From an uncultured Candidatus Micrarchaeota archaeon (lineage in GTDB: Archaea > Micrarchaeota > Micrarchaeia > Burarchaeales > Fermentimicrarchaeaceae), in NCBI GenBank assembly GCA_903884505.1, contig CAISET010000036.1, positions 8,741 to 72,740 on the forward strand: DNA of 64,000 nt, read 5' to 3'. Shown in pieces: positions 15,657 to 33,685 of the stretch; positions within the stretch are counted from its first letter, which is position 1, and every line of letters starts with the position of its first letter. The position numbers were made by a program, and so were the translations under genes. The notes under the pieces are model-generated. The model worked only from the letters and a program-made list of their open reading frames with translations. It was not told the DNA's origin and searched no databases.

Positions 15657-16823
15657 TCACACTCTCATCTTGAGCGCCAATGCCTTCCCCGCATTGGACG
15701 CTGTCCGCTTCCACATCCTTGCCAAAAAGCGCATCTCCCGCCGCGCATATGTGTTGTTAGTGTAGTAAAGCCCATGGCCGCTGAAGCGTGTCAGGTCCGC
15801 CTCCACCCCAAACTCTGCGCGGAGGTACTCCTCGAGCATCTTCGCCTCAATGGAGCGAACCCCTGGGAAACAGTCGTTTTCACCCTGCACGCACACCTCC
15901 TTTGCGAATGAGAGCGCAAGGAGCGGCTTTGCGAACTCCTTCGGATAGCCCGTCAGACGGATTCCTTCCGCAAACGCACTTCCGAACGGGCCGGAGAGGC
16001 TGACGAACGCCTTCCCAAACTCTGTTGCGAACTCTCCGCGCACCAAGCGGCGCGAGAACGAATCCACGAAATGGCGCAGGGCGAACGTGTTCAGGTCGCA
16101 CATCGGCAACGGCGTCCGCACCGGAACCTCCCAGTCTATGAGGTTCATGAGGCTGCCCCTTTCAGGCACTAGGGCGTTGTAGGGCGAAAGGTCCGGATGC
16201 GAGAGACTATTCGGGAGCTCCAGGCTCTCATGCGCATCAAAAATCCCCTCAAAGCCTGCTTGCAGGGCCGCGGCCGCCTTCCCTTTAAGCGACAGCACTG
16301 AGGCAACCCCTGAAATGATTGGATTCACCCTTTCCGCAAACATCCCGGCTGAAACCGTTTCGAACCCCTTTGGCGTTGAATAGAGCAGTCTTAGCGTCGA
16401 GCCCAAACGCCTGAAAACCCCGGAATTAAAACTGTCGTATCCAGTTTCCCCTGGCTTGAATCCCGCGTTCATCTCCGCTACCGGCCTGCCGCCCAGAGGC
16501 GACTCGAAGTAGGCGAAAAAATCTCCAATCCTTGCAGTTCCCAGCGGCCTCGGGATGTGCCTGGCGAGGCGCGGGCTGACCTCCGCGCGCAGCTCTTTCA
16601 ATGCCCGGCTCTCCTTCACGAACGAGTCGCCTCTTCTCATCTTTGCAATAAGCACGGGTTCCGCAGCTGAGCCGTCGTATATTATGGCCACTGCCTGGCA
16701 CAGCCGGGCATGCCTCTTCCTGCCCGAAGGAATGAGCCTGCAACCAAGCTTTTTCGGCTTCCGCTCCAGCCCAAGCGAAGCCCAATTTTTTTGAACATGC
16801 GGCAGCAAGTCCGGAATCATCAA
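15657..16823 (-). CDS. Aminoglycoside-phosphotransferase/choline-kinase-fold (APH-like) small-molecule kinase
   Basis: LSHPDLSPYNALV...LIDWE matches the HxDxxxxN...(I/L)DWE catalytic and Mg-binding pattern. Confidence 0.6.
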   Translation of the reverse strand: MMIPDLLPHVQKNWASLGLERKPKKLGCRLIPSGRKRHARLCQAVAIIYDGSAAEPVLIAKMRRGDSFVKESRALKELRAEVSPRLARHIPRPLGTARIGDFFAYFESPLGGRPVAEMNAGFKPGETGYDSFNSGVFRRLGSTLRLLYSTPKGFETVSAGMFAERVNPIISGVASVLSLKGKAAAALQAGFEGIFDAHESLELPNSLSHPDLSPYNALVPERGSLMNLIDWEVPVRTPLPMCDLNTFALRHFVDSFSRRLVRGEFATEFGKAFVSLSGPFGSAFAEGIRLTGYPKEFAKPLLALSFAKEVCVQGENDCFPGVRSIEAKMLEEYLRAEFGVEADLTRFSGHGLYYTNNTYARREMRFLARMWKRTASNAGKALALKMRV

Positions 16824-16848
16824 AACATATTATGGAAGAAGTATTAAA

Positions 16849-17658
16849 ATGGGTGGAGGCTGCAAAATAAGCTTGGTCGCAATGTTCTCACTCCGAACCT
16901 ACTGGAACTATCGTGAGCTCATCTGGAACCTCGCTGCCGCGGACCTCAAGAACCGCTACAAGAACTCCGCGCTGGGCTTCCTCTGGTCCTTCATGAGCCC
17001 TCTCCTAATGTCCCTCGTGCTCATCTTCGTCTTCATGCAAGTATTCAAGTTCACGATTGACAACTACCCGCTTTACATCATCTCAGGCATCATACCGTGG
17101 CGCTTTTTCGGCTATACGGCCAACACCATGCACTCCGTAAAGCTCTATTCCAGCCTCATACGTAAGATTTACTTCCCGCGCCAGGTCCTGGTTTTCTCCG
17201 CATGCCTGTCCGCACTCATCTCCACATCCATAGAGTTCGTCCTCCTCCTTCTCATCTCCATTGTGCTCGGAGGCAACATAACCGCATGGATTCTGCTCGT
17301 GCCGGTCTTCCTTGCAGCCCAGTTTTTCCTCGTCCTTGGCATCTCGTACGTGATTGCCGCCCTTTTCGTATTCTACCGCGACCTGCAGCACATCTGGGAA
17401 GTGTTCCTGCAGGTTGCATTCTACGCCGCCCCAATAATCTACCCTGCTACGCTCATCACGCAGTCCTCCCCGTACTACCTCGTCCTGCTCGCGAACCCCA
17501 TGAGCCATTTCATAATCACCTATCGCCACCTCTTCATGTACGGTGATGCGCCCGCCCTCGGCTCCATCATAGGCATAGCCGCATTCACCGTATTTGCCTA
17601 CGTCGCCGGCCTCCTGGTCTTCAAGAAGTTCGAGCCCCGCTTCGCGGAGGAGGTCTGA
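16849..17658 (+). CDS. wzm: ABC-2 type polysaccharide export permease (Wzm/TagG-like)
   Basis: YRELIWNLAAADLKNRYKNSALGFLWSFMSPLL signature and six TM segments. Alternative start at 16882. Confidence 0.85.
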   Translation: MGGGCKISLVAMFSLRTYWNYRELIWNLAAADLKNRYKNSALGFLWSFMSPLLMSLVLIFVFMQVFKFTIDNYPLYIISGIIPWRFFGYTANTMHSVKLYSSLIRKIYFPRQVLVFSACLSALISTSIEFVLLLLISIVLGGNITAWILLVPVFLAAQFFLVLGISYVIAALFVFYRDLQHIWEVFLQVAFYAAPIIYPATLITQSSPYYLVLLANPMSHFIITYRHLFMYGDAPALGSIIGIAAFTVFAYVAGLLVFKKFEPRFAEEV

Positions 17659-17659
17659 G

Positions 17660-18421
17660 ATGAACCCTATCGAGCTAAGGCGCGTGAGCAAGCATTTCCG
17701 CCTCCCACATGAGAAGCGCACGACGCTCTTTTCCGTAGTTGGTGGCCTCCTGCTCGGCAAGCACCAAAGCTTCGAAGATTTCTGGGCGCTCAGGGACATA
17801 AGCTTCGCGGTTGAGGAAGGCGAGGTCCTTGGAGTGGTCGGCCGCAATGGCAGCGGTAAGTCCACGCTCCTGCGCATAATAGGCAACATCTACCAGCCGA
17901 CCTCGGGCACGGTTTCCGTCCGTGGGCGCATCATTCCGTTCATAGAGCTGGGCGTCGGCTTCCAGGAGGAGCTGAGCGGGCGGGAGAACGTCTATCTCTA
18001 CGGCTCCATACTCGGGCTCCCGAAGCGGACAATAGATGTCAAGTATAACGAGATTGTCGAGTTCGCCGAGCTCACAGATTTCATGGACCTTCCGCTCAAG
18101 GATTACTCCTCGGGCATGAACATGCGCCTTGCATTCGCGACGGCAACCATCGCGGAGCCGGATGTCCTCCTCATAGACGAGGTCCTGGCTGTCGGCGATG
18201 CCGAGTTCCAGAAGAAATGCCTGGACAAGATGGAGGATTTCAGGCGCAGGAGCAGGGCCATCGTCTTCGTTTCGCATGACGCCGCGCAGGTGGGAAAGCT
18301 CTGCAGCAGTGCCTTGCTGCTCAGCCACGGGAAGGCGCATGCCCTCGGCGAGCCTTCCGAAGTCCTGAAGGAATACGAGTCGCTCCTGAAGAACGAGGAG
18401 GCGCAGCACGCCGGGAAATGA
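17660..18421 (+). CDS. wzt: ABC polysaccharide export ATPase (Wzt/TagH-like, short form without a C-terminal glycan-binding domain)
   Basis: Walker A GRNGSGKSTLL, signature YSSGMNMRLAFA and Walker B LLIDEVL. Start is 1 nt after the wzm stop. Confidence 0.85.
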   Translation: MNPIELRRVSKHFRLPHEKRTTLFSVVGGLLLGKHQSFEDFWALRDISFAVEEGEVLGVVGRNGSGKSTLLRIIGNIYQPTSGTVSVRGRIIPFIELGVGFQEELSGRENVYLYGSILGLPKRTIDVKYNEIVEFAELTDFMDLPLKDYSSGMNMRLAFATATIAEPDVLLIDEVLAVGDAEFQKKCLDKMEDFRRRSRAIVFVSHDAAQVGKLCSSALLLSHGKAHALGEPSEVLKEYESLLKNEEAQHAGK

Positions 18422-18452
18422 GCAATGGCAGCCATGCCCTGCAGGCAAAGTG

Positions 18453-19361
18453 ATGAAAATGCAGCCCATCTTGGAAGGCAAACGCAACGAATACGTCATA
18501 AGCCTGCCGACGCGGCACATAGACTGCCCGGTCTGCGGGAAGAGCGAGAAGCTGCCGGTCTATGTCGAGCATTCAACCCTCGTCCGCTGCAGGACGTGCG
18601 GCCTGCTTTTCTACGACCCGCAGCCGACCCCGGAAGCCATCAGGGAGTATTATTCCTCACCTATCGGCTACATCGACAGCATAGACAAGGAGCTTGAGAA
18701 GAAGCGCGCGGACCCGCACGCATTTGATGCACTGCACGCGCAGGCCATGGAGCGGATTGAGCGCTTCCACCCGGAGAAGGGGACGCTGCTGGACGTGGGG
18801 TGCGCGCACGGCTTCTTCCTTGACTATGCGAGGAAAAGGGGGTGGAAGGTCAGGGGCGTGGAGCTTGCGCGCAAGACCGCGGATTACGCAAAAAAGGAGT
18901 TCGGGCTTGACGTCGTGAATTCGAGCCTCATAGATGCCGGGTTCCCGGAGGGCTCATTTGACGCGGTGGTGATGCTCGAGGTGCTGGAGCATGTGATGGA
19001 CCCGGTCGCGGAGCTCCGCGAGATTGCCAGGGTTCTGCGAAAGGGCGGGGTGGTCTACATCACGACCCCTAATTTCGACAGCCTCACCTCAAGGGAGTTC
19101 AAGCAGGCGTGGGAGTGCAAGTCCTACCCGAATCACCTCTTCTATTTCACGCGCAACTCAATCAATGCGCTGCTCAGGAAGGCCGGGCTCGAGCCCGTCC
19201 ACCTGGCATCCGAGGAGGGCAGGTATCCTACGCCGGGCGCGGACGCGGAGATACTGAAGCGCAAGCTCGGGGTCTCGGATGCCGAGTCCAAGGGCATGCT
19301 CAAGTGCCTGTATGAAAGCGGCCTCGGCCCCGAGTGGGAGATAGTCGCGCGCAAAAATTAG
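18453..19361 (+). CDS. Class I SAM-dependent methyltransferase with an N-terminal Zn ribbon
   Basis: CPVCG...CRTCG, then LLDVGCAHGFF (motif I) and VVMLEVLEHVMDP. Confidence 0.75.
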   Translation: MKMQPILEGKRNEYVISLPTRHIDCPVCGKSEKLPVYVEHSTLVRCRTCGLLFYDPQPTPEAIREYYSSPIGYIDSIDKELEKKRADPHAFDALHAQAMERIERFHPEKGTLLDVGCAHGFFLDYARKRGWKVRGVELARKTADYAKKEFGLDVVNSSLIDAGFPEGSFDAVVMLEVLEHVMDPVAELREIARVLRKGGVVYITTPNFDSLTSREFKQAWECKSYPNHLFYFTRNSINALLRKAGLEPVHLASEEGRYPTPGADAEILKRKLGVSDAESKGMLKCLYESGLGPEWEIVARKN

Positions 19362-19364
19362 GGA

Positions 19365-20567
19365 TCACTTCTTCTCGCCGGCTTTTGCGAGGATTAGCCT
19401 CCTTATCTGGAGCGTACCGGTGCGGTTGCCGGAGTAGGTGGTGAGGTTCAGTGAAACCATTCTTGAAGCGCGCGGAAGCCCGAACTCGAACCGCAGCCAT
19501 TCCCTTGCAGTGAAATCGCCGTCCAGCAGGGTTCCGGACTCCGGGTCGCCAAGCTCCATGTAAATCCCGTCATCCGAGCCCATGGCCTCGACCACCAGCA
19601 TGTGTTCGGCATTGCCGAGCCCGTTAAGCGTTAGCACGATTCCAGCGTAGGAGTCTCTGGAAGGAACGCTTATTGAGATGGTCTCGCCCACCCTCACCTC
19701 CGTGCCTGGACTTGCCTTAGTCCCTGCGATGGAGAGCATGCCGTTCCGCGAGGTCCTGGCTGGCGGCTCGAGCCTGTCAATCTCCACCAGCTCCGGCAAT
19801 CTGATTGACTGCGCGCCCACCCTCTTCCCCGCCTCCCAGCCGGGCTCCAGCATGAATCCCCATTTGCCCATGAAAACCTTCCGCGAGTGGGTGAACGCCT
19901 CGGGCTTGTTGATTCCCCCGCTGAGCTTCCCCTCGTGGTGCACGAGCACCGCGCTCGGCTCCACGGCCAGCTTCCACCCCCTCCACCGCGCGGCAAAGCC
20001 CTGGTCCACATCATCAAAATAGAAGTAATACTCCTCGTCAGGCAGCCCTATGTCGACAAGGGTTTCGCGCTTTATGAGCGTGCACGTATAGGGCAGGAAA
20101 GCGGGCGTTTCGCCCTCCCTGGTGATCGGGTGGGACCTGCCGTCGCTGCCAAGCCCCATGCCGAGGGACTGCACCCTGCCGTCCGGATATACCAGCTTGG
20201 GCGCCACCATCCCGATGCGCGGGTCGGACTCGGCCTTCTCAACCATGCGCTGCAGCCACCCGCCGTCCTCCGCAGGCGCCTCAACATCCGTGCCATATGC
20301 CAGGCAGTAGTCGAACGAATGCGCCAGCGCATGCCTCAACCCGACATTCAGCGTCCCCGCGTAGCCTACATCCCCTTCAGTCCGCAGGAAGACCATGCCT
20401 TCAAGGCCCTTCAGGTATTCCACGGTGCCGTCGCTGCTGCCCCCGTCCACCACAATCACGGTGTGCGGGTAGCCGGCCTTCGCGAGCCGTTCAAGGCATT
20501 TCGGAAGATACTTCATCCCGTTGTAGGCCGTGATGACCACTGCGACCGTCTTCGGCTTTCCCTGCAT
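19365..20567 (-). CDS. GT2-family glycosyltransferase with a C-terminal beta-rich extra domain of about 140 aa
   Basis: VAVVITAYNG...VIVVDGGSSDGT and a DD acidic motif (FYFDDVD). The C-terminal domain is unassigned. Confidence 0.75.
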   Translation of the reverse strand: MQGKPKTVAVVITAYNGMKYLPKCLERLAKAGYPHTVIVVDGGSSDGTVEYLKGLEGMVFLRTEGDVGYAGTLNVGLRHALAHSFDYCLAYGTDVEAPAEDGGWLQRMVEKAESDPRIGMVAPKLVYPDGRVQSLGMGLGSDGRSHPITREGETPAFLPYTCTLIKRETLVDIGLPDEEYYFYFDDVDQGFAARWRGWKLAVEPSAVLVHHEGKLSGGINKPEAFTHSRKVFMGKWGFMLEPGWEAGKRVGAQSIRLPELVEIDRLEPPARTSRNGMLSIAGTKASPGTEVRVGETISISVPSRDSYAGIVLTLNGLGNAEHMLVVEAMGSDDGIYMELGDPESGTLLDGDFTAREWLRFEFGLPRASRMVSLNLTTYSGNRTGTLQIRRLILAKAGEKK

Positions 20568-20584
20568 GCCCCTATTTGGGAGTG

Positions 20585-20600
20585 CTTATTATATTTATTG
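20585..20600. promoter_or_regulatory. AT-rich bidirectional TATA region (CTTATTATATTTATTG)
   Basis: The only AT-rich stretch in the 56-nt divergent spacer. It lies about 25-30 nt from both start codons (20567 on minus, 20624 on plus). Confidence 0.4.
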
Positions 20601-20623
20601 AACAGGAATATGCATCCGCTGGG

Positions 20624-22294
20624 ATGCGGAAAGCAGGAGGGCATTTGATGGACGCATTATGCATGGAATTCAGCCTGAGGTGCCTTGCGGAAGAAGTGGA
20701 AGGGAAACGTGTGCTTGAGCTCGGCGCCATGGATGTGAACGGGAGCGTCCGCTCCGTGCTTATGCCCCTGAAGCCGGCCGAGTACGTCGGAGTGGACATG
20801 GAAAAGGGCCCAGGCGTGGACGTTGTCTGCCGCGGGGAGGAGCTCGTAAAGAAGTTCGGGAAGAACAGCTTTGACACCGTCGTCTGCGTGGGCACGCTTG
20901 AGCACGTCGAGTACTGGCGCGAAACCATCTCGAACATGAAGGGCGTCTGCAAGCCAGGGGGGGCGATAGTGCTCACCACCTGCTCCCCGGGATTCATATT
21001 CCACGGATACCCGCACGACTACTGGCGTTTCACCCTCAAAGACCTTGAAAAAATATTCTCGGATTTCAAAATCGAGCGCCTCGAGGAGGAAACCACGGTG
21101 CGCGAAGTGATGATAAAAGCAAGAAAGCCGGCGCGATTCATCGAGAAAAGCCTTTCCGGCATAAAGCCATACCGCGTCCGCAAGAGTGATAAGTCGCGGA
21201 AGCGCATTTTGGAGGTCGGCTGCGGGGGAGGGCTCAAATCTCCGGAGATGTGGCTGCGCGGGGACGTGACTGGAATCGACATCTCTGAAGAGGCGCTTGA
21301 AATGGCGCGCAATTATTTCCCACACGCCACGTACCTCAATATGAAGGCGGAAAAGCTCTCCTTCCCGGACTCATCATTTGACGAGGTCCACCTCAGCCAC
21401 TCCCTTGAGCACGTTGAGGATGAGGACAGGACACTGGATGAGGCGTCTCGCGTGCTGAAAGCCGGTGCCAAGCTTTTTGTTGAGGTTCCGCACCACGCGT
21501 CCGAGAATTTCTTCTCGCTCATAAACCCCGGCTACTTCAAGCAGACCGGGCACAGGCGCGTCTTCACCGAGAAAATCATCGTGAGGAAGCTGAACGCGCA
21601 CGGCTTCGAGGTCAGGCGTGCAACATACCACCGCTTCATAATGAACGTTTACCTTGCAGGCCTTTTTCTCAGTGGAAACAAGATTGCCAACCAGCAGGGG
21701 GCTCCGGTGAAGGAGGGCGGCGAGACCAAGGCGGACCGCATCTGCCGTTTCATAATGCTCATCTCGAATGTGCCCGTGGAGCTTGTCCGGGGCTCACTCG
21801 GGAAAGAAGGGGTCAAAGAGATGGAGGAGGCCTTCGGCATGCCCCTGCAGGACATCGCACTTTTCCTCGCCGCTGCCGATGCGGTCGGGACGCGGCTCTT
21901 CCCGGAAGCCATGCGCCTCGAATGCGTGAATGTGGGCGGGAAGGCTGAGCAGAAAGCGGAGGACATCAAGTGGGAGTCCCTTCCTCCTGTTCCGAAGAAG
22001 CTGTTTTCCGGTTCGGGCATCCGTGCCGAGCTCGCGCTGAAGAACTACGACTGCGTTGCCACCCAGCTTGTGCAGGCGAACGCGAAGCTTGCGCATGTCA
22101 TAGCCAAATACGGGGAGCAGGAGAGGCACTACTCGAAAGAGTCTGCAGAGCTGCGCAGGCAGCTGGAGCGCGCCCGCCGCCACTCCCCAACGCACCACGT
22201 GCGGAAAGCTTATTCGTGGCTCGCTCCCCGCATCGCGCTTAGGACGCGCGCACGGAAGTGTTACTCATGGTTAAATGGCCGGCGTGCACGGTAA
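20624..22294 (+). CDS. Dual SAM-methyltransferase-domain protein with a C-terminal coiled-coil/basic tail
   Basis: Domain 1 has VLELGAMDVNGS...VVCVGTLEHV. Domain 2 has ILEVGCGGG...VHLSHSLEHVED...LFVEVP. The tail reads KYGEQERHYSKESAELRRQLE...VRKAYSWLAPRI. Start at 20624 or 20648. Confidence 0.7.
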   Translation: MRKAGGHLMDALCMEFSLRCLAEEVEGKRVLELGAMDVNGSVRSVLMPLKPAEYVGVDMEKGPGVDVVCRGEELVKKFGKNSFDTVVCVGTLEHVEYWRETISNMKGVCKPGGAIVLTTCSPGFIFHGYPHDYWRFTLKDLEKIFSDFKIERLEEETTVREVMIKARKPARFIEKSLSGIKPYRVRKSDKSRKRILEVGCGGGLKSPEMWLRGDVTGIDISEEALEMARNYFPHATYLNMKAEKLSFPDSSFDEVHLSHSLEHVEDEDRTLDEASRVLKAGAKLFVEVPHHASENFFSLINPGYFKQTGHRRVFTEKIIVRKLNAHGFEVRRATYHRFIMNVYLAGLFLSGNKIANQQGAPVKEGGETKADRICRFIMLISNVPVELVRGSLGKEGVKEMEEAFGMPLQDIALFLAAADAVGTRLFPEAMRLECVNVGGKAEQKAEDIKWESLPPVPKKLFSGSGIRAELALKNYDCVATQLVQANAKLAHVIAKYGEQERHYSKESAELRRQLERARRHSPTHHVRKAYSWLAPRIALRTRARKCYSWLNGRRAR

Positions 22295-23595
22295 TCACCG
22301 TCAACTGGAACGGCAAGCAGCATCTCGCCGACTGCCTGCCATCGGTCCTTGCGCTGGACTACCCCAAGAAGCTCCTTGAAGTGATAGTTGTAGACAATGC
22401 CTCAACCGACGGTAGCGTGGACTTCCTGCGGAAGAGCTTCCCATCAGTCCGCGTGGTGGAGACCGGTGCGAACCTGGGTTTTGCCGGAGGCAACAACGCC
22501 GGCGTCAAGCACGCCAAGGGAGAGATAATCGCCCTCATAAATTCGGACGCCAGGGCAGACCCGGGCTGGCTCAAGGCGCTCGTCGAGCCCCTCGTTTCCG
22601 GGAGCAAGAAGCTCGTGGCCACGAGCTGCCTTAGCACCGGGTGGGATGGCACGGGTGTGGATGCGCCTGTTCCAGTAAGCATCCTGGGCGTGGCGACCGG
22701 CTATCCGGTCGGGCTGAAGAAGGCGGAGGATTACCTCGAGCGCAGGCCCGTCCTTCTCCCCGCCGGCAACGGCTGTGCCATACGAAAGAAGGCCTTCGTG
22801 GATGCCGGAGGTTTTGACGATGATTTCTTCATGTACCTGGAGGACGTGGACCTGGGCTGGAGGTTCTGGCTCATGGGCTACGAAATTCTCCACATACCCG
22901 AGGCAAGGATATGGCACAAGGGGACAGGCTCACGCAAGGAGGCAATGTCCAGGCTTTATGCCATCGCAGAGCGGAACGCACTTTTCGTGCTCATAAAGAA
23001 CCTCGAAGATGAGACCCTGGCAAGGCTTCTTCCGGCCGCCCTCTGGGTGAAGATACAGCGCTTCCTAAGCTACGCAAACGTGGACATCGAGAGCTACAAA
23101 TTCGGGAAACCCCGCGACCCAAGGCAATCAATCTCGGTCAATTCCGAAGCATTCACCCCGATAGTGGGCGCAGTCCAGGCGCTTGAGCTTATCGAGAAGA
23201 TGTTCGCGAAGCGCGCCAAGATACAGAAGATGCGCAAGCGCAGCGACAAGGAGATTTTCAAGCTGTTCGACAGGCCGTTCGATTTCCAGTCATTCGATAA
23301 GGGGAGCATCAAACTGCAGCACTCCATGCTTAGCGCAATGGGCTGGGACATCAGGCCACTCCAGGCAACGCCCGAGGAGCTTAGGGGGCTGCACGACATC
23401 ATCGACAAGCAGAACAGGGAATTGAGGGGCGTGCTGCGCAAATACGAAGAGCAGGAGCAGAGGCACAATGCCGAGGTGAAGCGGCTGCTCGAGTGGTCCG
23501 AGCCCAGAATACCGGTTCTCAGCCACGCCTACCGGAGAGCATTGCCCCACCTCAGGCGAGCCAAATCTGCGGTCAAGCGAGTGGTCAGGCGCTGA
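22267..23595 (+). CDS. GT2-family glycosyltransferase with a C-terminal coiled-coil/basic tail
   Basis: CTVITVNWNG...VIVVDNASTDGS...GFAGGNNAG and a YLEDVDL (DxD) motif. The tail KYEEQEQRHNAEVKRLLE...SHAYRRALPHL resembles the tail of the preceding protein. Confidence 0.8.
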   Translation: MVKWPACTVITVNWNGKQHLADCLPSVLALDYPKKLLEVIVVDNASTDGSVDFLRKSFPSVRVVETGANLGFAGGNNAGVKHAKGEIIALINSDARADPGWLKALVEPLVSGSKKLVATSCLSTGWDGTGVDAPVPVSILGVATGYPVGLKKAEDYLERRPVLLPAGNGCAIRKKAFVDAGGFDDDFFMYLEDVDLGWRFWLMGYEILHIPEARIWHKGTGSRKEAMSRLYAIAERNALFVLIKNLEDETLARLLPAALWVKIQRFLSYANVDIESYKFGKPRDPRQSISVNSEAFTPIVGAVQALELIEKMFAKRAKIQKMRKRSDKEIFKLFDRPFDFQSFDKGSIKLQHSMLSAMGWDIRPLQATPEELRGLHDIIDKQNRELRGVLRKYEEQEQRHNAEVKRLLEWSEPRIPVLSHAYRRALPHLRRAKSAVKRVVRR

Positions 23596-23603
23596 GTGGT
23601 ATT

Positions 23604-25889
23604 ATGGTCCCTCCGCTGGTTTCAATCATCACCGTGAACTGGAACGGGAAGGAGCACCTTAACGGCTTCTTCGAGTCAGTCCGAAATCTTGACTATCCGC
23701 AGGGCAGGCTTGAAGTCCTGATGGTTGACAATGGCTCCAAGGACGGCAGCGTGAAACTCACCCATAAGCATTTTCCGTGGGTTAAGCTAATTGAGATGGG
23801 CAAAAACCTCGGATTCGCAGAAGGGAACAACTTAGGGATAAAGGAAGCTAACGGCGAGTACGTGCTTCTCCTGAACAACGACGTCGTAGTGGACCCGAAG
23901 CTCGTGAAGGCGATGCTCGCCTGCTTTTCGGGCAAGTCGGTTGGGGGAGTTGGCGCAAAGGTGCTCCGCTGGAATGAGAGCAACCCGCCATACGACAAAG
24001 CTAACAGCATCTCAACCTCATGGCTGAAGGTCAGTCCGGAAACCGGGATGCCATGGAATTTCAACGATGAGAGGCAGAAAGCGGAAATTGACTACCTTCC
24101 AGGCTGCGCAATGATGATTAAGCGCGAGATTTTAGGCAAGTTGGGGGGCTTTGACCCGGCTTATTTTGCTTACTTTGAAGAAACCGACCTTTGCGCAAGG
24201 ATGATCAAGGCAGGCTACCGCCTCATTTACGCGCCGGATGCAGTTGTCTGGCACAAGGTGATGGGCTCAACAAAAAAGAAAGCAAATGTGGCAAAACAAA
24301 CAACGCCTGCTTCTGTTTTCGAGTCCGGCCCATCAAACTTCAACCAAGTAATGATGGCAAGAAACAGGCTCAGGTTTGTTCTGAAGAATTTTGATGCAAC
24401 CGCGCTCCCAAAATTTGCACTGCTCTATGCGACTGACCTTCTATTCAAAATCATCAATATCGCAATTTTCAAGCCAATTATGGCGTTGAGGTATTGGGCA
24501 GACTGGCAGGGCTGGAAGGAGTATGAACACTTTGAGCGGGCGTATTGGGACGAGGCAAAGTTCATATGGTCTGGCGTTTTCTGGAATTTTATTCATTTGC
24601 CTGAAACCACGCGGGCTAGGCGCCGCGATTTTGGGCGAATCAGCAATCGCCAATCCTACAACCGCAACCTCCCGCTTGCAGAGGTGCCAAATCGCATTAG
24701 TGGCATGCGGAATGGGGAAACAAGCGTAATAGTCATACCCTCAATCTCATGGTTCTTCCCGTTGCACCAGCGGATACACCATTTTGCGGCCCTCTTTGCA
24801 AGAAACGGCTGCGATGTGCTCTACATAGAGCCTGAGCGGCACAGGGAGAATCACTTCGCCAAACAGTTCCTTGAGGTCTGGTACCCAACGACTGGCGCAG
24901 GCAACATTTTCCAGCTTGCAACCGCAGCCAAGCTCAGCATGACCTTCAGATGGCCAATCCAAATTGCATCAGCCATTATGCGCAAGCTGGGCATTTTTGG
25001 CTTTTGGCATAAGGTGAGGGGAGGAGCAGAATCCAAGTTGTTCAAAACCCAGTATGAAGCGAAGTTCACGGAGTATGCAACAGCTAAAAGCAAAGTCGCA
25101 TTTTACCAGATACCATACAAGACCGAATACGTCCCGATGCTGAAGGAGCTTGGCTACAAGATTGTTTACGACATGGTGGATGAGGTCGCAGAGTTCAAGG
25201 GATCCCCTAGCTACTTCAGCAGCGGAGAGGGTTACCTGCTCAAGAATGCAGACGTCGTGCTCACCACGGCGAAGCCCCTCTACGAGCGCGCGAAGAAATA
25301 CAACAAGAATGTCCTGCTAGTGCCAAACGGGGTCGAATACCCGCATTTCGTGAAGGCGAGAAGCAACCTTCCACGGCCTGCGGATATGCCGAAATCCAAG
25401 AAGCCCGTGGTCGGCTATTACGGTGCCATCTGGAACTGGTTCGACATAAACCTCCTGGAATATCTTGCGAGGAAGAGGCCAAATTACAACTTCGTGCTCC
25501 TGGGCACCCTTTACCCGGCTTACAAGCACAGGATTGCACGGCTGGAAAACGTCCATTACCTTGGCGAAAAGCCTTACTTCGAACTGCCAAACTACCTCTC
25601 ACATTTCGACGCAGCAACCATAATGTTCCGGGAGAGCAAGCTCACAAAATCCGTCAACCCGGTGAAAGTCTTCGAATACCTGGCAGGGGGGAAGCCCGTT
25701 GTTTCCACCTATTTGTCCGAGCTGAACGGCTTCCCGGAAGTCACCTTGGCGCACGATAAGGAGGAATTTCTTGCGGCACTCGACAAGACGATTGGGCATA
25801 AACCAGACCTGAACACAATAGACGCATTCCTAAAGGATAAAACCTGGGATGCGCGTTTTAATTCCGCTCGGAAGGCGCTAAGGTCGTAG
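23604..25889 (+). CDS. Bifunctional glycosyltransferase: N-terminal GT2 domain plus C-terminal GT-B (GT4-like) domain
   Basis: N-terminus: VSIITVNWNG...MVDNGSKDGS...GFAEGNNLG..FEETDL. C-terminus: VVGYYGAIWNWFD...VNPVKVFEYLAGGKPVVS (EX7E-like region). Confidence 0.75.
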   Translation: MVPPLVSIITVNWNGKEHLNGFFESVRNLDYPQGRLEVLMVDNGSKDGSVKLTHKHFPWVKLIEMGKNLGFAEGNNLGIKEANGEYVLLLNNDVVVDPKLVKAMLACFSGKSVGGVGAKVLRWNESNPPYDKANSISTSWLKVSPETGMPWNFNDERQKAEIDYLPGCAMMIKREILGKLGGFDPAYFAYFEETDLCARMIKAGYRLIYAPDAVVWHKVMGSTKKKANVAKQTTPASVFESGPSNFNQVMMARNRLRFVLKNFDATALPKFALLYATDLLFKIINIAIFKPIMALRYWADWQGWKEYEHFERAYWDEAKFIWSGVFWNFIHLPETTRARRRDFGRISNRQSYNRNLPLAEVPNRISGMRNGETSVIVIPSISWFFPLHQRIHHFAALFARNGCDVLYIEPERHRENHFAKQFLEVWYPTTGAGNIFQLATAAKLSMTFRWPIQIASAIMRKLGIFGFWHKVRGGAESKLFKTQYEAKFTEYATAKSKVAFYQIPYKTEYVPMLKELGYKIVYDMVDEVAEFKGSPSYFSSGEGYLLKNADVVLTTAKPLYERAKKYNKNVLLVPNGVEYPHFVKARSNLPRPADMPKSKKPVVGYYGAIWNWFDINLLEYLARKRPNYNFVLLGTLYPAYKHRIARLENVHYLGEKPYFELPNYLSHFDAATIMFRESKLTKSVNPVKVFEYLAGGKPVVSTYLSELNGFPEVTLAHDKEEFLAALDKTIGHKPDLNTIDAFLKDKTWDARFNSARKALRS

Positions 25890-25891
25890 TA

Positions 25892-26740
25892 ATGGGTGAA
25901 ACCAGCGAATCAAACGTGATGCTTAAGCCGTTGTTCATGGATGAAGTATTCGAATCACTGCCCAACACTGCAACCGTGCTCGACTTGGGTTGCGGGAACG
26001 GGAGCTTTGACTATTCAAACTACAAGTTTTCAATAAAGGCAGTTGACGTAGCGGAGCCGAGCAAACCCATGCCGCCTAACGCGGAGTTCAAGAAATGTGA
26101 CGTAATATCGCTTCCATTTGAGGCGAACACATTTGACGTTGTGATTGCCAACTGGATTCTCGAACACGTCGCGGAGCCGGAGAAAGTGCTTGCCGAAGTC
26201 GGCAGGGTTCTGAAGGACGACGGATTGTTTTATGTCTCAATTCCCGATGGTTCGGGGTTTGACGACAAGTTGTACCGCTGGCTTTACAATGGCGGCGGGC
26301 ACCTCAACAAATTCAAGTTCGAAGGCTTCCGCGCGCTGGCCGGGAAATCAGCTGGACTTACCCTGGTTGCGTACTCTGATTGGTACTCTGGCTTTACTTA
26401 TCTCCGGACTCCGTCCCAGGAGGCGCGCATATACCTTAAAGAGACGCTCATGCGTGTCACCTACCTTTTGCCAAATATCATCGTGAATGCTGTCCAGCAG
26501 TCAGTAATCTGGTTCGCGAGGAACTCGGATAAGAAAATTGGCACACATCTGAGCAGGTGCGGCTGGATACTGCTCTACAAGAAAACTGAGAGGACAGAAA
26601 CGCCAGAAAAGAGGAGCGTCCCTTTCAACGTTTGCCGGAAGTGCGGGGCATCCTATCGTGGGTCACCGCAGCATGGGGTAATGCCATTTCTGAGGACGTT
26701 CAAGTGCCCGGGTTGCGGAACCGCAAATCTATTCGTATAG
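25892..26740 (+). CDS. Class I SAM-dependent methyltransferase with a C-terminal Zn ribbon
   Basis: VLDLGCGNGSF, VVIANWILEHVAEP and C-terminal CRKCG...CPGCG. Confidence 0.7.
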   Translation: MGETSESNVMLKPLFMDEVFESLPNTATVLDLGCGNGSFDYSNYKFSIKAVDVAEPSKPMPPNAEFKKCDVISLPFEANTFDVVIANWILEHVAEPEKVLAEVGRVLKDDGLFYVSIPDGSGFDDKLYRWLYNGGGHLNKFKFEGFRALAGKSAGLTLVAYSDWYSGFTYLRTPSQEARIYLKETLMRVTYLLPNIIVNAVQQSVIWFARNSDKKIGTHLSRCGWILLYKKTERTETPEKRSVPFNVCRKCGASYRGSPQHGVMPFLRTFKCPGCGTANLFV

Positions 26741-26885: not shown

Positions 26886-27566
26886 TTGCCATCGACCATA
26901 AGCGTGATCATACCAACGATTAATGAGGAGCGCAGCGTAGGGGAAGTGATAGGTGAACTGCCACGTTCACTAAAGCAGAAATGTGAGATAATAGTTGTCG
27001 ACTCAAACTCCACGGACCGGACAAGGGAAGTCGCGCGCGCACGGGGGGCCCGCGTGGTAGTGGAGAACCGCAGGGGCTATGGCCGCGCATTCCTTTCAGG
27101 CGCCAACGCGGCAAAAGGGGATATCGTCGTGCTTATAGACGGCGATGGCACCTACTCGCTCGCAGAGCTTCCCGCCATCATCAAGCCCATAGTTGATGGA
27201 AATGCCGATTTGGTAATCGGCTCGCGGTTCGACGGCAAGATGGAACGCGGTTCCATGCCTACAATTAACTACCTCGGAAACCATTTGTTCGTCTCAATTA
27301 CAAACCTCCTGTTCAGAACTTCAGTACGCGATTCACATTCGGGCTATCGCGCGATAAGCGCATCTTCGTTGCGCAGCCTCAAGCTTCAATGCAAGGGGAT
27401 GGAATACGCGACCGAGATGGTGGTTCGTGCCGCACAAAAGCGCCTTAGAATCGCTTCAGTGCCGATAACTTACCGCAGGCGCTCGGGCAGCTCGAAGCTG
27501 CATCCCTTCCGGGATGGCGCGAGGCACATGGCGCTCATTCTGAAGCTTTTCCTTTCGCGCCCGTGA
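26886..27566 (+). CDS. Small Dpm1/GtrB-like GT2 (polyprenyl-phosphate sugar synthase-like), soluble form
   Basis: ISVIIPTINEE...IIVVDSNSTDRT...VLIDGDGTY...DSHSGYRA. Confidence 0.75.
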   Translation: MPSTISVIIPTINEERSVGEVIGELPRSLKQKCEIIVVDSNSTDRTREVARARGARVVVENRRGYGRAFLSGANAAKGDIVVLIDGDGTYSLAELPAIIKPIVDGNADLVIGSRFDGKMERGSMPTINYLGNHLFVSITNLLFRTSVRDSHSGYRAISASSLRSLKLQCKGMEYATEMVVRAAQKRLRIASVPITYRRRSGSSKLHPFRDGARHMALILKLFLSRP

Positions 27567-27649
27567 ATAAAACGCTTTAAGCATATAGTCGCGAGTTAAA
27601 TCCGACGAAGCAAACCTATTCGAAGAAATATGCACTGCTTGCCAAGTGC

Positions 27650-30600
27650 CTACTCGCTGCGATAAACATAATATACAGGGTTGCCGTCCCGCTGGTAAAA
27701 TGTCCGTTCCAAGACAAACGTCATATTCCCCCCTTCAGCCAGTTTGGCCATTGTTTCCCTTCTATGCTTGAATTGCGTAAAGTCATCACTATGGAAAAGG
27801 AAGGTCGCGTTTTTCCGGGCCATCAGCGCTTTGGCGCTCTCATTGAACCATGCGTCAGGCTCCGAGGTCCAGCCGAACGCAATCAAGGGCCTTATCCTGC
27901 CATTGCTCAAGTATGCTAAATTGCTGTAGAATCCCCAGTCCATCGCGACCACATCGGATGCATTCCGTTCCAGAAGATACTCATTGAGCCCATATATTGC
28001 GTCTGAGGTTAGGCCTTTGCCGCCATACGTGGCAATGTCACGCAGGTAACCCGTGCTAATGCCAACTTCGGAAAAGAGCAACAGCGCGAACGCGATTATC
28101 ACGATTACCACTATCGCTTTCGGTACAATATCTAGCAGGACTGACGCGAACCGTCCAATCACCAGTGGTATCCATGGGTACAAGATAAGCATGTGGTACG
28201 GCGCAAAGCCGCTCACAGTGAAGCCGCTAAGGAACATGACGATTGCGAGAAGCCAAATCGGCAAAACGTCGGTGAATGTAATCTTCCTCCTGTAAGCCCT
28301 GAAAAGGCAGTAAGCTGCCAAGCCAGCCAAAGCGACCCAGAATGCCTTGACATTCAGGCCATTGAAGTGGACCGTGCCAGCCCCTATCGCAGGCATGCTT
28401 CCCACGAGCACCTGGTTCAATTGGCTTAAGCGGATCCCCTGGTTCCCCACAACATCAAGGTTCTGCACTCCACCGGAACTTTTGAAACTGCCATCTAAAA
28501 TTCCCAGCTTGGCAAGAATTCCCGCGTCGTAGTGCATTACGTTGTAAGCGATGAGCGTTCCTGCCCCCAAAGCAATCAGGAAGACGGCAATTGCCGCCTG
28601 CTTAACCGTTGGCAGCGGCTTCGGTCTGTCTACGAGCAGCCAAAGCGCAATGGCAATCAGGAACCAGGTGAATTGCAGGGCAGCATTCACGCCAAGCCCC
28701 GCCAGGAGCCCGGCAGCGTACAGATACTTCGCATTTTTTGTCTTGCGGTACATCACCACGGCAAGAAACAAGGTGGCTGCAAATAAGTTGGCCTGCCCGT
28801 ATATGCTTACCCGCTCAAGGAAAAGGAATGTGGGCGACACCGCAAGCAGCAACGCCACCAATACGGCGGTTTTGCGGTCCCACGTAATCCGGACGGCGAA
28901 ATACGTTGCATACATTATGAGCAGCGCATAAACCGCATCGGCAAGCCTCAGGGAAAAGCCAGTCGGCCCAAACAGCACGATGAATGGCAATCCCAGGTAT
29001 GCGCTCACCGGGCCGATATAATCCGTGCATTGGAGCAGCATCGGGTGGCCGAACAAATCAACGCTCCAAACAGCATCTATGCTTTGGCCATTCAGCATCT
29101 GGACGGCCGAAGCCAGCATATAAACCTCGTCGCTGTATATGCCTGGGAGATGCGCGTCATAAAGCAGGAACACTGCCATTAGTGCGCTCAGTGCAGCTAA
29201 GAAGCAGAACTCCGCAACTTGCATGTTTTTACTGGGAAGGAACTTCCACGCCCTGTTCAAGTCAAAATTCCCGCGTATCCCGAACTCTCGGGCAATGAAA
29301 TAACCTAAAATCAGCACCAATAAGGTGAAAATTGCACAAGGCAGCACCTGCAGCTGCTGCTTGGTAAAGCCATAGACTAGCGGCACGTCAAGGCGGTATG
29401 GGAGTGGAAACATGCTTTCATCGGATATGAGCCGCGCATGGTAAGCGATGGGCGCGTAGTAAAAGTCATATATCGCTTTGGCCGGCACGAATTCCCCCGG
29501 CTCGCGCAGGGACATTATCCCGCTTGGCATGTTGAACGCGGTGACAATGTTGCCTATCACGCCCAATAGGTTTACGGACAACGTTAACAACAACAGCAAA
29601 ACAAAAATGGCCTTAAACCACGAAGTCTTCCATCTCTTTTCTATTGCTGCACCAAGCGCCAAAATCATGAACGGACTTGCGGGCACCAGGTAGCGCGTCC
29701 CCCATGCTAGCCAACCGTGCCAATCGGTAAACGCAGAAAATACAATCAGCAGGGGCAGGATCCAGGCAAGAAACAGCACCGCCCCTTCCCGTCTCCTGCG
29801 CCACATATCGTATAATCCCACAAGCGAGAGCAAAAGTACCGGCGAATAGATGAAGAGGCCTACTCCGGGGCTGAAAAGAAGGCCGTAAAGCCCGGTCAAA
29901 AGCGGGGTGGCGAACCCGGGGTTCGGTCTCAGGGAGGTGGTGAAAACCGAGCCGACCCGCACGTAGTCGTAGAGCGCGTTTACCGCAATCCATGCCGCGA
30001 ATGGCGCTGCAAAAAATGCTGCGGCAACGAGCTTCTCCCTAAGGCTTCCCCTCCAGGCCCACAGGACATAAAGGCCGAGCGGGAATATGAACATCATGAA
30101 ATCGTACCGCACGAATGCGGCAAGTCCTGCAAAAAATCCGGCGTAGAATAAGTCGCTGTGCTTTTTTGGCCCCCACAGGTAGTACGCGGCCAATGCAATA
30201 AAAAGCGTGACGAGGGGCGCGTTGAATAACGTCTTTGCGTACGGCCAAGCCTGGGTGGCGAACGCGAAAAGCAGGGCCAGGGCAGCCGAAAGCTTTACGG
30301 AGTACTTCATTTTTCTTGCAAAAAAGAACACGACTACGACCGTAAGCGCAGTTATGAGCGGATTAAACATGAAGTCTGTAAACGAAAAATACGTAGCAAA
30401 ATCGGTGAAGTGCGTGAGCTCCGCATTCGGGTTTAGCATTTTTCCCATAATGTAAAATGGGATGAAAAGAAGGCTCTGCCCGAGGCCATACCTCGAATAT
30501 ATTTTTCCTTCCGGGGTGACAAACCATAACCAATTACCTGCCGGATTCGCCCCTTCGAAAACCGGTTTTACTATCTCGAGCGTATGGTACTCGACTATGC

Positions 30601-30718: not shown

Positions 30719-30736
30719 GGAGAATTTAAGGCTGCT

Positions 30737-30748
30737 AATAAATATAAT
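30737..30748 (-). promoter_or_regulatory. TATA-like box (minus-strand ATTATATTTATT) for the tandem GT-C gene
   Basis: Lies 20-30 nt upstream of the GTG at 30718. Confidence 0.4.
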
Positions 30749-30763
30749 GCAATCACTCTGGAC

Positions 30764-33119: not shown

Positions 33120-33121
33120 CG

Positions 33122-33679: not shown

Positions 33680-33685
33680 ATCCAG

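Follow-up and report, generated by a model that had tools for sequence, protein, structure and literature searches.

A Wzm/Wzt glycan assembly and export core with candidate chain-end enzymes in a Micrarchaeota surface-glycan island

Gene content of the region

The window (the whole 64-kb stretch of DNA that was analysed) is archaeal: the relatives of its MCM are Micrarchaeota (DPANN), and it encodes an AglB with a WWDYG motif, in line with the host proposed by the sequence-only reading. Surface-glycan genes occupy an island of ∼41 kb (9.7-50.8 kb) with the oligosaccharyltransferase AglB as its 3' limit, and the island's cytoplasmic core, for assembly and export, spans 15.6-26.7 kb (Table 1). 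All nine open reading frames listed for the core were confirmed, at the positions listed or within a few codons. Operon packing between the kinase and methyltransferase genes and the glycosyltransferases is tight. No transmembrane segments were found in the kinase, methyltransferases or glycosyltransferases, and many were found in the GT-C proteins and AglB.

AglB has its WWDYG motif at residue 628 and 14 transmembrane-like segments, and its presence inside the same island marks an archaeal N-glycosylation (agl) cluster. It lies 22 kb from the export core, so that the link to N-glycosylation in the window is positional; AglB adjoins wzm only in L017, a related locus described below. The block between core and AglB probably serves decoration after export. 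The island also encodes two NTP-transferases (11894-12685 and 36030-36815) and B12-radical SAM enzymes.

Table 1. Features of the assembly and export core and its surroundings, in window coordinates
Feature	Position	Strand	Basis or detail
APH-fold glycan/sugar kinase, 387 aa, soluble	15657..16820	-	Conserved catalytic motifs, AF2 model, family context
Intergenic region, 61 bp	16821..16881	.	Sequence; AT-rich, TATA-like TTTTAATA / TATTAAAA
Wzm, ABC-2 permease	16882..17658	+	Pfam ABC2_membrane; 6 TM-like segments
Wzt nucleotide-binding subunit, short form, 253 aa	17660..18421	+	Nucleotide-binding domain only, no carbohydrate-binding module
Zn-ribbon + class I SAM methyltransferase (mt303)	18450..19361	+	Pfam; CxxC...CxxC + Methyltransf_23
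GT2 with C-terminal domain of ∼170 aa	19365..20567	-	Pfam
Dual methyltransferase, heptad stalk, basic SW-motif tail	20624..22294 (start elsewhere called 20648)	+	Two methyltransferase stretches
Dual methyltransferase, C-terminal tail	22010..22291	+	Heptad nt 22055-22159, then basic RKAYSWLAPRI...
GT2 with heptad tail and basic amphipathic end	22258..23595 (start elsewhere called 22267)	+	Pfam
GT2, C-terminal tail	23371..23592	+	Heptad segment nt 23398-23502
GT2 + GT-B (GT1/GT4-type) two-module glycosyltransferase	23604..25889 (long ORF from 23493; gene start called elsewhere 23604)	+	Pfam
Class I SAM methyltransferase, C-terminal Zn ribbon	25892..26740	+	Pfam; sequence
Context block	26886..41099	.	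Four small GT2 (Dol-P-sugar synthase-like), four GT-C/PMT_2 membrane proteins, one methyltransferase, epimerase, NTP-transferase, GT4
AglB/STT3 oligosaccharyltransferase, 858 aa	48222..50798	+	STT3 and AglB_core matches

The Wzm/Wzt exporter

The two subunits form a Wzm/Wzt polysaccharide ABC exporter: a six-TM ABC-2 permease, with a weak NCBIfam match to the galactan export permease Wzm/RfbD, is followed after 1 nt by a nucleotide-binding domain (NBD) of the Wzt/TagH clade. The best PDB matches of Wzt were the Aquifex Wzt NBD (E 1e-61), TarH, TagH and Mtb RfbE. Together with the gene families of the core, this placement bears out the proposal of ABC-transporter-dependent glycan assembly in the cytoplasm.

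The absence of a glycan-binding domain from Wzt was confirmed. Alignment of the protein to the 404-aa Aquifex Wzt was confined to the NBD (residues 31-241), and searching a six-frame translation of the 64-kb window with a Wzt_C profile made from 7 loci gave no match (best E 0.6). The coupling central to the O9a logic, in which a carbohydrate-binding module (CBM) on Wzt reads the cap, thus has no CBM anywhere in the 64 kb to work through. In the literature every terminated, gated ABC system (O3/O5/O12/O4/O7 type, with a methyl, methylphosphate or Kdo cap at the non-reducing terminus) has a Wzt CBM, and the CBM-less O1/O2 transporters export ungated. Cap-gated export is therefore unlikely here, and the best reading, which we consider evenly poised between right and wrong, is chain-end methylation or phosphorylation combined with ungated export.

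The kinase and its family

The kinase is divergent from wzm, as first noted from sequence, and the 61 bp between them are probably a shared bidirectional promoter of the kinase and wzm-wzt genes. Against Pfam APH the protein scored 18.9 bits, below the gathering score of 23.2; 28 of 35 members of its family match APH. Lys61, HPDLSPYN (209-216) and IDWE (229-232) are conserved, with K61, H209-N216 and D230-W231 invariant or nearly so across the family. The AF2 model (pLDDT 87) matched APH(3') and APH(2'') structures, with a TMt of 0.55-0.65 to APH(3'). On its motifs and predicted fold the protein is a member of the APH superfamily, with the beta3 lysine, the HxDxxxxN loop, the metal-binding D(W/F)E and a bilobal architecture. 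The C-terminal helix is basic and amphipathic (muH 0.71, net charge +5), and the heptad stretch seen on two neighbouring proteins is not found on the window kinase.

A WbdD-type (Src/ROCK-like) kinase was considered and rejected. WbdD was not within the top 50 Foldseek matches of the model, the top 27 all being APH enzymes, and it was missing from the 60 best PDB profile matches, so that the suggested likeness to the WbdD kinase domain did not hold.

The family is tiny, with 7 representatives below 1e-10 among 1.8e9 searched, and its members were always found in glycan loci, repeatedly with Wzm/Wzt and across distant lineages. Remote loci used for comparison were L004, L007/L017, L008, L010 and L011, whose kinases align with that of the window over about 290-350 aa at 23-27% identity (BLASTP E 1e-16 to 4e-23). 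In 5/5 of these loci the gene immediately upstream of the kinase encodes a methyltransferase of one Trm112-like Zn-ribbon family, Wzt carries Wzt_C in all 3 with a visible Wzt, and some of the remote family members carry coiled-coil tails. In the close relatives L001, L015 and L016 the divergent order of kinase and wzm-wzt(short) is kept and the genes 3' of wzt differ; no methyltransferase lies near the kinase of L001.

These neighbourhoods bear on the possibility that the kinase is an antibiotic or small-molecule kinase and the methyltransferases are lipid or quinone enzymes, placed here by chance. The nearest structures to the kinase fold are indeed aminoglycoside phosphotransferases, which act on small molecules, and the window methyltransferases match generic UbiG/UbiE-type models with scores under the cut-offs. 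Against this stand the repeated occurrence of the family with wzm/wzt, glycosyltransferases and methyltransferases, the tight packing with glycosyltransferases in the window, and the tails common to a methyltransferase and a glycosyltransferase (below). The context is that of Wzm/Wzt loci with a conserved methyltransferase, not of resistance or choline kinases, and a chance location, already disfavoured, is very improbable.

A related archaeal locus with the full kit

The archaeal L017/L018 (ENA ERZ27237563 k141_2930746; NCBI GCA_027364455.1 DAHXPG010000003.1) have the order AglB(WWDYG), divergent from wzm, wzt with CBM, methyltransferase, kinase with coiled coil, mt303 orthologue, split GT2/GT-B orthologues and B12-radical SAM. 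Identities to the window are 57% for wzm, 55% for the wzt NBD, 25% for the kinase, 35% for the Zn-ribbon methyltransferase, 48% for each of GT2 and GT-B, 31% for the B12-radical SAM enzyme and 31% for AglB (WWDYG). Wzt_C on Wzt, the partner methyltransferase upstream of the kinase, the kinase coiled-coil tail and AglB beside wzm are features of L017 and not of the window, which has in their place a dual methyltransferase and a GT2 with putative coiled coils.

A profile of the methyltransferase that partners the kinase family elsewhere matched none of the window ORFs at E<1e-3, and the best BLAST result was a 64-aa SAM-motif match. The kinase-wzm-wzt-methyltransferase neighbourhood proposed for comparison therefore recurs, with the full kit in L017/L018, but is incomplete in the window. 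Because L017/L018 are archaeal and carry the full kit, a predicted archaeal polymerase-terminator pathway is well supported, and judged by gene content the window is a reduced relative of the L017-type locus, without CBM, partner methyltransferase or kinase coiled coil.

Methyltransferases, glycosyltransferases and their tails

The Zn-ribbon methyltransferase and the last methyltransferase of the core were both present as described from sequence, the last likewise with a Zn ribbon, at its C-terminus. Along its whole length the former shares 35% identity with the methyltransferase that immediately follows the kinase in L007/L017. The additional C-terminal domain noted on the GT2 at 19365..20567 was found as ∼170 aa beyond GT2, with no family match in Pfam and an hhalign probability of 0.2% against Wzt_C. 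The second GT2 (22258..23595) is 40% identical to the GT2 adjoining the kinase in L004. The proposed GT2+GT4 enzyme has GT2 and GT-B (GT1/GT4-type) modules, the second by a modest match (Glyco_trans_1_2, 31 bits); it is 48% identical to two adjacent L017 genes (GT2_350 and a 398-aa protein) and is a candidate polymerase by its modular organisation.

The dual methyltransferase is a candidate chain-end methylating terminator by its predicted architecture, which fits the known pattern of a terminating catalytic module at the distal end of a coiled coil. A homologue of matching architecture, P0009, is encoded directly after wzm and a CBM-bearing wzt, an arrangement seen in L019, a bacterial (Aminicenantia) rhamnan-type locus. 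In a further homologue, P0006, the tail unit is duplicated.

Heptad-compatible stretches were found at residues 478-512 of the dual methyltransferase and 381-415 of the neighbouring GT2. Their scores were in the top 0.2-0.3% of scored segments (dual methyltransferase, top 0.16%), the putative coiled-coil assignment being made with a home-made heptad score. The tails are homologous to each other (BLASTP E 0.002) and alone, in all six frames, contain the motif K[FY]xEQE, for which 0.015 occurrences would be expected. The end of the GT2 tail is strongly amphipathic and basic (muH 0.72, net charge +7). The coiled-coil tails claimed for these proteins were thus found as homologous heptad stretches, but at about 35-45 aa they do not establish a ruler on the scale of WbdD.

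In total the island holds 5-6 methyltransferase domains, above the need of a cap, which suggests in-chain methylation and not a cap alone. A pathway with no terminator at all would account for this: the methyltransferases would modify internal residues, the kinase would act on an internal sugar or be an anomeric sugar-1-kinase (NahK/AmgK-like) that supplies the nucleotidyltransferases of the island, and chain length would follow from the balance of polymerase and transporter. The B12-radical SAM enzymes, the two NTP-transferases, the CBM-less Wzt, an APH fold common to sugar and aminoglycoside kinases, and the retention of the kinase with wzm-wzt while the glycosyltransferase/methyltransferase cassette changes are consistent with it. 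However, the remote kinases are always paired with one methyltransferase family and some have coiled-coil tails, which fits enzymes acting at a polymer end and not precursor kinases. The tail of the window kinase is of a membrane-type amphipathic kind, and the stalk architecture of the dual methyltransferase is a mark of terminators, coiled-coil terminator proteins being the hallmark of the polymerase-terminator strategy. A pathway with no terminator is a serious possibility but on balance doubtful.

Comparison with characterised systems

The E. coli O9a / K. pneumoniae O3 system (WbdA-WbdD, Wzm/Wzt-CBM) resembles the window in multi-module glycosyltransferase assembly in the cytoplasm, in Wzm/Wzt export, in a locus with methyltransferase and kinase, and, by prediction, in the order of catalytic domain(s), coiled coil and membrane-binding C-terminus. 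WbdD has a Src/ROCK-like kinase and a C-terminal coiled coil (residues ∼460-708) that ends in a membrane-binding, polymerase-recruiting segment. Its methyltransferase and kinase are fused in one chain, whereas those of the window are separate genes; the remote kinase-family loci keep the WbdD-like sequence of methyltransferase then kinase as gene order. The stalk is ∼40 aa in the window proteins and the C-terminal domain of WbdD 250 aa. O9a and O3 use a Wzt with CBM and the WaaL ligase, and the window a CBM-less Wzt, AglB and a presumed dolichol carrier.

The full O9a logic would have the dual methyltransferase and kinase add a methyl or phospho-methyl cap that halts the chain once it reaches the length dictated by the coiled coil, with only capped chains exported. 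It draws on the kinase-family loci with Wzt_C and an adjoining methyltransferase, on the dual methyltransferase homologue beside a CBM-Wzt, on the homologous tails of methyltransferase and glycosyltransferase, and on the duplicated tail unit of P0006, as expected for a tunable spacer. The NBD-only Wzt in a window free of Wzt_C-like domains, the published rule on CBMs in terminated, gated systems, the missing partner methyltransferase, a kinase not of WbdD type and the short heptad stretch all count against it, and it is unlikely. The WbdD-like capped-chain logic first suggested for the locus is therefore retained in part, as an archaeal ABC glycan pathway, and the cap-gated coupling is not seen in the window.

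The N-terminal methyltransferase-kinase terminator of K. pneumoniae O7 ORF6, which makes a methylphosphate cap, has a kinase unlike that of WbdD and structurally nearest to the APH-type AmiN (Kelly et al. 2024, PMC11231755). By its published description, on which the comparison was made, ORF6 shares with the window an APH-type kinase, which in ORF6 precedes a coiled coil and is combined with GT2 modules. ORF6 unites these parts in one polypeptide, with a compact kinase domain of 223 aa (catalytic D441) and a CBM of Ig-like type (PMC11231755), whereas kinases of the window family have a full 340-390-aa APH fold and their own gene. A methyltransferase and an APH-fold kinase encoded by separate genes may represent a third kind of methyltransferase-kinase terminator pair, beside WbdD and, by its published description, O7 ORF6.

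The K. pneumoniae O1/O2a galactan, mycobacterial galactan Wzm-Wzt and TarGH/TagGH systems share the short CBM-less Wzt and export without a cap gate but, unlike the window, have no coiled-coil terminators or kinase/methyltransferase sets. Terminal modification is present in O1 and only diversifies the chain. Geobacillus stearothermophilus NRS 2004/3a (wzm, wzt, WsaE, WsaB) also makes an ABC-dependent glycan, with an O-methyl cap added by a methyltransferase joined to glycosyltransferase modules, and an oligosaccharyltransferase then moves the glycan onto the surface-layer protein. It differs in being bacterial, with O-linkage through WsaB, a rhamnan chain and a Wzt predicted to bind the methylated end; in the window the last step would be N-glycosylation by AglB, and Wzt is CBM-less.

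Proposed pathway

In the pathway that we propose, a chain linked to what is presumably dolichyl phosphate would be built at the inner membrane face by the soluble GT2 and GT2+GT-B enzymes, held to the membrane by basic amphipathic tails. Several SAM methyltransferases would O-methylate the chain, their likely acceptor. The dual methyltransferase, on its short coiled-coil stalk, would modify the growing chain end, where the APH-fold glycan kinase probably also acts. The K[FY]xEQE tails of the dual methyltransferase and neighbouring GT2 probably pair, which would join the terminator to a polymerase component. Since Wzm/Wzt has no cap-reading module, export would not be gated by the cap and would proceed in the CBM-less Klebsiella O1/O2a mode. 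Outside the cell, Dol-P-sugar-dependent GT-C enzymes probably decorate the glycan, and AglB probably then attaches it to the presumed final acceptors, S-layer or pilin-like proteins. The window locus and the L017-type locus would derive from a common kit, with the CBM, partner methyltransferase and kinase coiled coil lost in the window lineage. To this pathway as a whole, a core that exports without a cap gate and modifies the chain end, we give an even chance.

A broader and rather speculative proposal, improbable as it stands, is that some archaea export lipid-linked N-glycan precursors via Wzm/Wzt with a terminal methyl or phospho-methyl cap from a split methyltransferase and APH-fold kinase as the export ticket (L017, beside AglB), and that the Micrarchaeota lineage lost the CBM gate, leaving kinase, dual methyltransferase and GT2 as a length-setting complex joined through the K[FY]xEQE tails. 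To our knowledge, the transmembrane movement of lipid-linked glycans in archaea is unresolved, and the proposal, if true, would provide a candidate archaeal glycan translocase. It would also give a molecular basis to a finding from 1985, that methylation of halobacterial dolichol-linked glycans takes place solely at the lipid-linked stage. Such methylation in Halobacterium is described as 'yet to be seen elsewhere', and a 2024 review contains no mention of a flippase or an ABC transporter. In a literature search no link between DPANN archaea and Wzm was found, and AglB and Wzm appeared together only for bacterial glycans.

So far only bacterial examples of the polymerase-terminator ABC strategy have been elucidated. 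The archaeal wzm-wzt(CBM)-methyltransferase-kinase locus adjacent to AglB, and its natural CBM-less derivative in a DPANN archaeon, are testable candidates. DPANN genomes are typically very small, and the ∼41 kb devoted to surface glycans would take up a large part of such a genome; any contact with a host cell would be made at the cell surface.

Gene content of the island

The window DNA is archaeal and encodes MCM, RIO1, aIF2-beta and topoisomerase VI, as well as an AglB/STT3 that bears a WWDYG motif. Named relatives of the MCM are Micrarchaeota (DPANN), at 62% identity to Ca. Fermentimicrarchaeum limneticum and 53-60% to many Ca. Micrarchaeota/Micrarchaeia MAGs; a MAG that carries the label Ca. 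ainarchaeum sp. matches at 74%. All 9 of the genes from which the sequence-only reading had proposed an archaeal form of the E. coli O9a (WbdD) pathway were present. They are one portion of a larger glycan island. No TM-like segments were found in the cytoplasmic enzymes, bar one borderline segment in the GT2 + GT-B protein, and 6-17 were found in the GT-C proteins, Wzm and AglB.

Features of the glycan island and its surroundings (window positions)
Feature	Position	Strand	Remarks
UDP-glucose dehydrogenase, epimerase, NTP-transferase	9.7-12.7 kb		Start of island
Short block of housekeeping genes	12.7-15.7 kb		Inside island
172-aa ORF	12716-13234	-	Without family match; called as a 171-aa gene on another contig carrying the same region
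APH-like kinase	15657-16820	-	Divergent from wzm-wzt, 61 AT-rich bp between
wzm	16882-17658
wzt	17660-18421
Zn-ribbon MTase	18450-19361
GT2 (400 aa)	19365-20567	-	~170-aa C-terminal domain lacking family assignment
Dual MTase	20624/20648-22294		Two MTase domains + tail
Tailed GT2	22258/22267-23595		Tail resembles that of dual MTase
GT2 + GT-B protein	23604-25889
MTase	25892-26740		C-terminal Zn ribbon
4 small GT2s, 4 GT-C/PMT_2 membrane proteins, extra MTase, sugar-nucleotide enzymes, GT4, larger GT2	26.9-42.0 kb
GT-C (PMT_2/PIG-V-like) membrane glycosyltransferase	27650-30718	-
GT-C (PMT_2/PIG-V-like)	30764-32383	-
GT-C (PMT_2/PIG-V-like)	36905-38575	-
GT-C (PMT_2/PIG-V-like)	38725-39930	-
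UbiA prenyltransferase, radical-SAM/B12 enzymes, UDP-GlcNAc 2-epimerase			Between the 26.9-42.0 kb block and AglB
B12-binding radical SAM enzymes	43010-45360	+
584-aa protein	45320-47074	-	12 TM-like segments, 0 Pfam matches; between radical-SAM genes and UDP-GlcNAc 2-epimerase; may be a transporter or a further GT-C
AglB/STT3 oligosaccharyltransferase	48222-50798	+	858 aa, WWDYG at residue 628, 14 TM-like segments; closes island
T2SSE/T2SSF-type genes	55698-58839
T2SSE-type secretion/assembly ATPase	55698-57977	+	N-terminal 4Fe-4S ferredoxin-like region
503-aa protein	61265-62776	+

Transporter

Among solved structures, the window Wzt is closest to the NBD of Aquifex aeolicus Wzt (E 1e-61), to TarH, to TagH and to mycobacterial RfbE. 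Of the 404-aa Aquifex Wzt, a protein that carries a carbohydrate-binding domain, only residues 31-241 are aligned. A profile of this C-terminal module (Wzt_C), which reads the chain cap, was built from seven related loci; run over every frame of the window and over L001, L015 and L016, the loci of close kinase relatives, it found no remnant. Because the alignment is confined to the NBD and the profile finds nothing, the Wzt is short, as had been read from the sequence, and is not accompanied by a detached carbohydrate-binding module (CBM) of the Wzt_C family in any of the six frames. The 400-aa GT2's C-terminal domain was considered as a detached Wzt_C-like CBM and this was not supported (0 Pfam matches; hhalign probability 0.2%); it may be a beta-sandwich unrelated to Wzt_C.

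A CBM is present on Wzt in every terminated, gated system (Kelly et al. 2024, PMC11231755). The O1/O2 transporter lacks it and its export is not gated; in O1 a terminal pyruvate serves only to diversify the chain. The export mode of the window is closest to the CBM-less O1/O2a, mycobacterial galactan and teichoic-acid transporters.

Dual methyltransferase and tails

Polymerase-terminator systems are marked by a coiled-coil protein with a terminating module at its distal end (Kelly et al. 2024, PMC11231755). By sequence comparison the tail of the dual MTase is homologous to that of the adjacent GT2 (BLASTP E 0.002), and across all six frames of the window the motif K[FY]xEQE occurs in these two tails only (0.015 expected). 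Coiled coils were called with a home-made heptad score calibrated on the window ORF background, in which both tails fall in the top 0.2-0.3%. A basic segment follows the heptad stretch in each tail and is strongly amphipathic in the GT2 (muH 0.72, net charge +7). PDB searches with the glycosyltransferases returned generic GT2 matches only.

The dual MTase is rare. Its homologue P0009 has the same architecture of two MTase domains, coiled coil and 'SW' terminal motif, and comes immediately behind wzm-wzt(Wzt_C)-MTase in a locus of rhamnose type from a Ca. Aminicenantia bacterium (L019, 6335-11701: rml genes, wzm, wzt with Wzt_C, CmcI-type MTase, two-MTase + coiled-coil protein, GT2), where it ends in ...SRSWKITCFLRNIKR. 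The 'SW..' motif is also found in the window dual MTase (YSWLAPRI, YSWLNGR) and in a second homologue, P0006 (ILSWLR), in which the tail unit is duplicated.

The coiled-coil tails proposed by the sequence-only reading were recovered as homologous heptad-type tails on both proteins, but by this score they span only ~35-45 residues, against ~250 for the C-terminal domain of WbdD. For the full O9a logic, in which export is gated by the cap and a ruler sets the chain length, the defining CBM is missing and the stalk is short; we consider it unlikely.

Kinase

From sequence alone the assignment of the kinase to APH is weak (18.9 bits against Pfam APH, below the gathering score of 23.2). APH was matched by 28/35 family members, and the beta3 lysine, HxDxxxxN loop and D-W-E metal site are conserved family-wide. 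AF2 gave no usable model with 4 sequences (pLDDT 42); the one used was built from 35 sequences (pLDDT 87.2, pTM 0.85). In a structure search this model matched APH(3'), APH(2'') and fructosamine-3-kinase, and WbdD was absent from the top 50 matches; the kinase sequence gave chance matches only against the PDB. As the WbdD kinase resembles Src/ROCK and the model matches APH structures, the two are related at superfamily level only, and by structure and profile comparison the kinase is not of WbdD type. Direct WbdD homology was dropped because no search of the PDB, whether with the dual MTase, with partner MTases (see below) or with the kinase profile, returned WbdD. The kinase C-terminus is strongly amphipathic and basic (muH 0.71, net charge +5).

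The family is very small, with 3 close homologues among 5.8e9 proteins and 7 representatives below 1e-10 among 1.8e9. A profile search of genome contigs with the kinase alignment found nothing, and a metagenome scan yielded two short contigs and nothing else.

Kinase neighbourhoods

The key evidence comes from neighbourhoods, of which there are few (Wzt can be seen in three of the five remote loci). Remote relatives are 23-27% identical. The gene directly upstream of the kinase encoded a partner MTase (Trm112-like Zn ribbon + MTase; 37-56% mutual identity) in 5/5 remote loci, so that the order MTase->kinase is the domain order of WbdD. Wzt carried Wzt_C in 3/3 loci where it is visible (L004-6, L011, L017/18), and two remote kinases have coiled-coil-like C-terminal extensions.

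Locus L017/L018 reads AglB-like <> wzm - wzt+Wzt_C - partner MTase - kinase + coiled coil - Zn-MTase orthologue - GT2 - 398-aa protein - MTases and B12-radical SAM enzymes, with the AglB-like gene directly adjoining wzm. The AglB-like protein (860 aa, WWDYG) is 31% identical to the window AglB over its full length; wzm, the Wzt NBD and the Zn-MTase are 57%, 55% and 35% identical, and the GT2 and the 398-aa protein are each 48% identical to the N- and C-half, respectively, of the window GT2 + GT-B protein. L017 was called archaeal because of this AglB-like gene with WWDYG and its neighbours MEMO1 and IDI2 (type 2 IPP isomerase). From the gene order and these archaeon-compatible neighbours we infer that an archaeal polymerase-terminator kit exists beside AglB. 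The window locus is a relative of this kit without the CBM, partner MTase and kinase coiled coil; the partner-MTase profile matched 0 ORFs in the window.

Searched against genome contigs, the partner-MTase profile found only Opitutaceae loci of the form wzm-wzt(long)-MTase. In these MAGs (L012, L013, L014; ~7400-10900) the long Wzt has a coiled-coil-like linker and Wzt_C-like end, the MTase is 32-36% identical to the kinase-partner MTase and no kinase is nearby; they may represent a form of this kit with a methyl-only cap. The B12-binding radical SAM enzymes of the window and of L017 (18518-21284) are 31% identical and could perform C-methylation or another radical sugar modification.

The window set differs from the WbdD family in three tested features, fusion, kinase type and cognate CBM. 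The O9a/O3 WbdD system is among the nearest in function. Also near, compared by description only, is the K. pneumoniae O7 ORF6-N MTase-kinase, whose kinase is unlike WbdD and nearest to an APH-type enzyme. The Geobacillus S-layer glycan pathway, with an O-methyl cap, Wzm/Wzt and then an oligosaccharyltransferase, is close as well.

Apparent variable cassette

L001, L015 and L016 (66-76% identity) all keep RIO1, the kinase and the divergent wzm-wzt with short Wzt. Identities to the window are 75.5% (kinase), 91% (Wzm), 88% (Wzt) and 87.5% (RIO1) for L015/L016, and 66%, 85% and 78% for kinase, Wzm and Wzt of L001 (RIO1 not compared); the kinase diverges faster than its neighbours. What follows wzt differs in each: the window has the Zn-MTase, L001 another GT2-GT4 and L016 a radical-SAM enzyme. 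L001 then runs directly into orthologues of the window genes at 33.7 and 39.9 kb, so window 18.4-33.7 kb acts like a variable cassette whose flanks are conserved. Inside the stretch replaced in L001, GC drops to 0.505-0.535 at ~24000-32000 (0.56-0.61 in the flanks), as would fit an exchanged cassette; this region takes in the GT2 + GT-B gene, the MTase at 25892, one small GT2 and two GT-C genes.

The constant pairing of kinase and transporter beside a changing cassette favours the main rival reading, in which MTases and kinase act on internal residues or precursors, as do the many MTase domains of the island and the sugar kinases also housed in the APH fold. Against this reading, remote members of the kinase family are invariably paired with an MTase, kinases of other lineages carry coiled-coil tails and the window kinase has a membrane-type tail.

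Proposed pathway and candidate substrate

The most economical reading is a cytoplasmic, multiply methylated, lipid-linked glycan with a modified end and ungated export. The glycan would be assembled on its lipid and methylated in the cytoplasm; the stalked dual MTase, probably together with the kinase, would modify its end, and the ungated Wzm/Wzt would export it. Dol-P-sugar-dependent GT-C enzymes would then decorate it outside the cell, and AglB would probably receive it, judged from gene position, with adjacency to wzm seen only in L017. In the literature searched, no paper connected DPANN archaea with Wzm; the one paper on AglB with Wzm and the few matches for Wzt with archaea dealt with bacterial glycans or were general reviews. 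Halobacterial glycans are methylated at the lipid stage only, a feature that according to a 2024 review is so far without a parallel.

The GT-C proteins, one of double length (1022 aa, two PMT_2 stretches), sit beside the four small GT2s (~220-235 aa). Together they look like several three-component extracytoplasmic decoration systems (Dol-P-sugar synthase + GT-C).

The 503-aa protein, encoded downstream of the T2SSE/T2SSF-type genes, is a candidate N-glycoprotein substrate: its class III signal peptide (RRGQSSIEFMLLL...) resembles those of type IV pilins and archaellins, and it contains several N-x-S/T sequons. The ferredoxin-like region of the T2SSE-type ATPase (Fer4_6/7/11 matches) is an unusual fusion.
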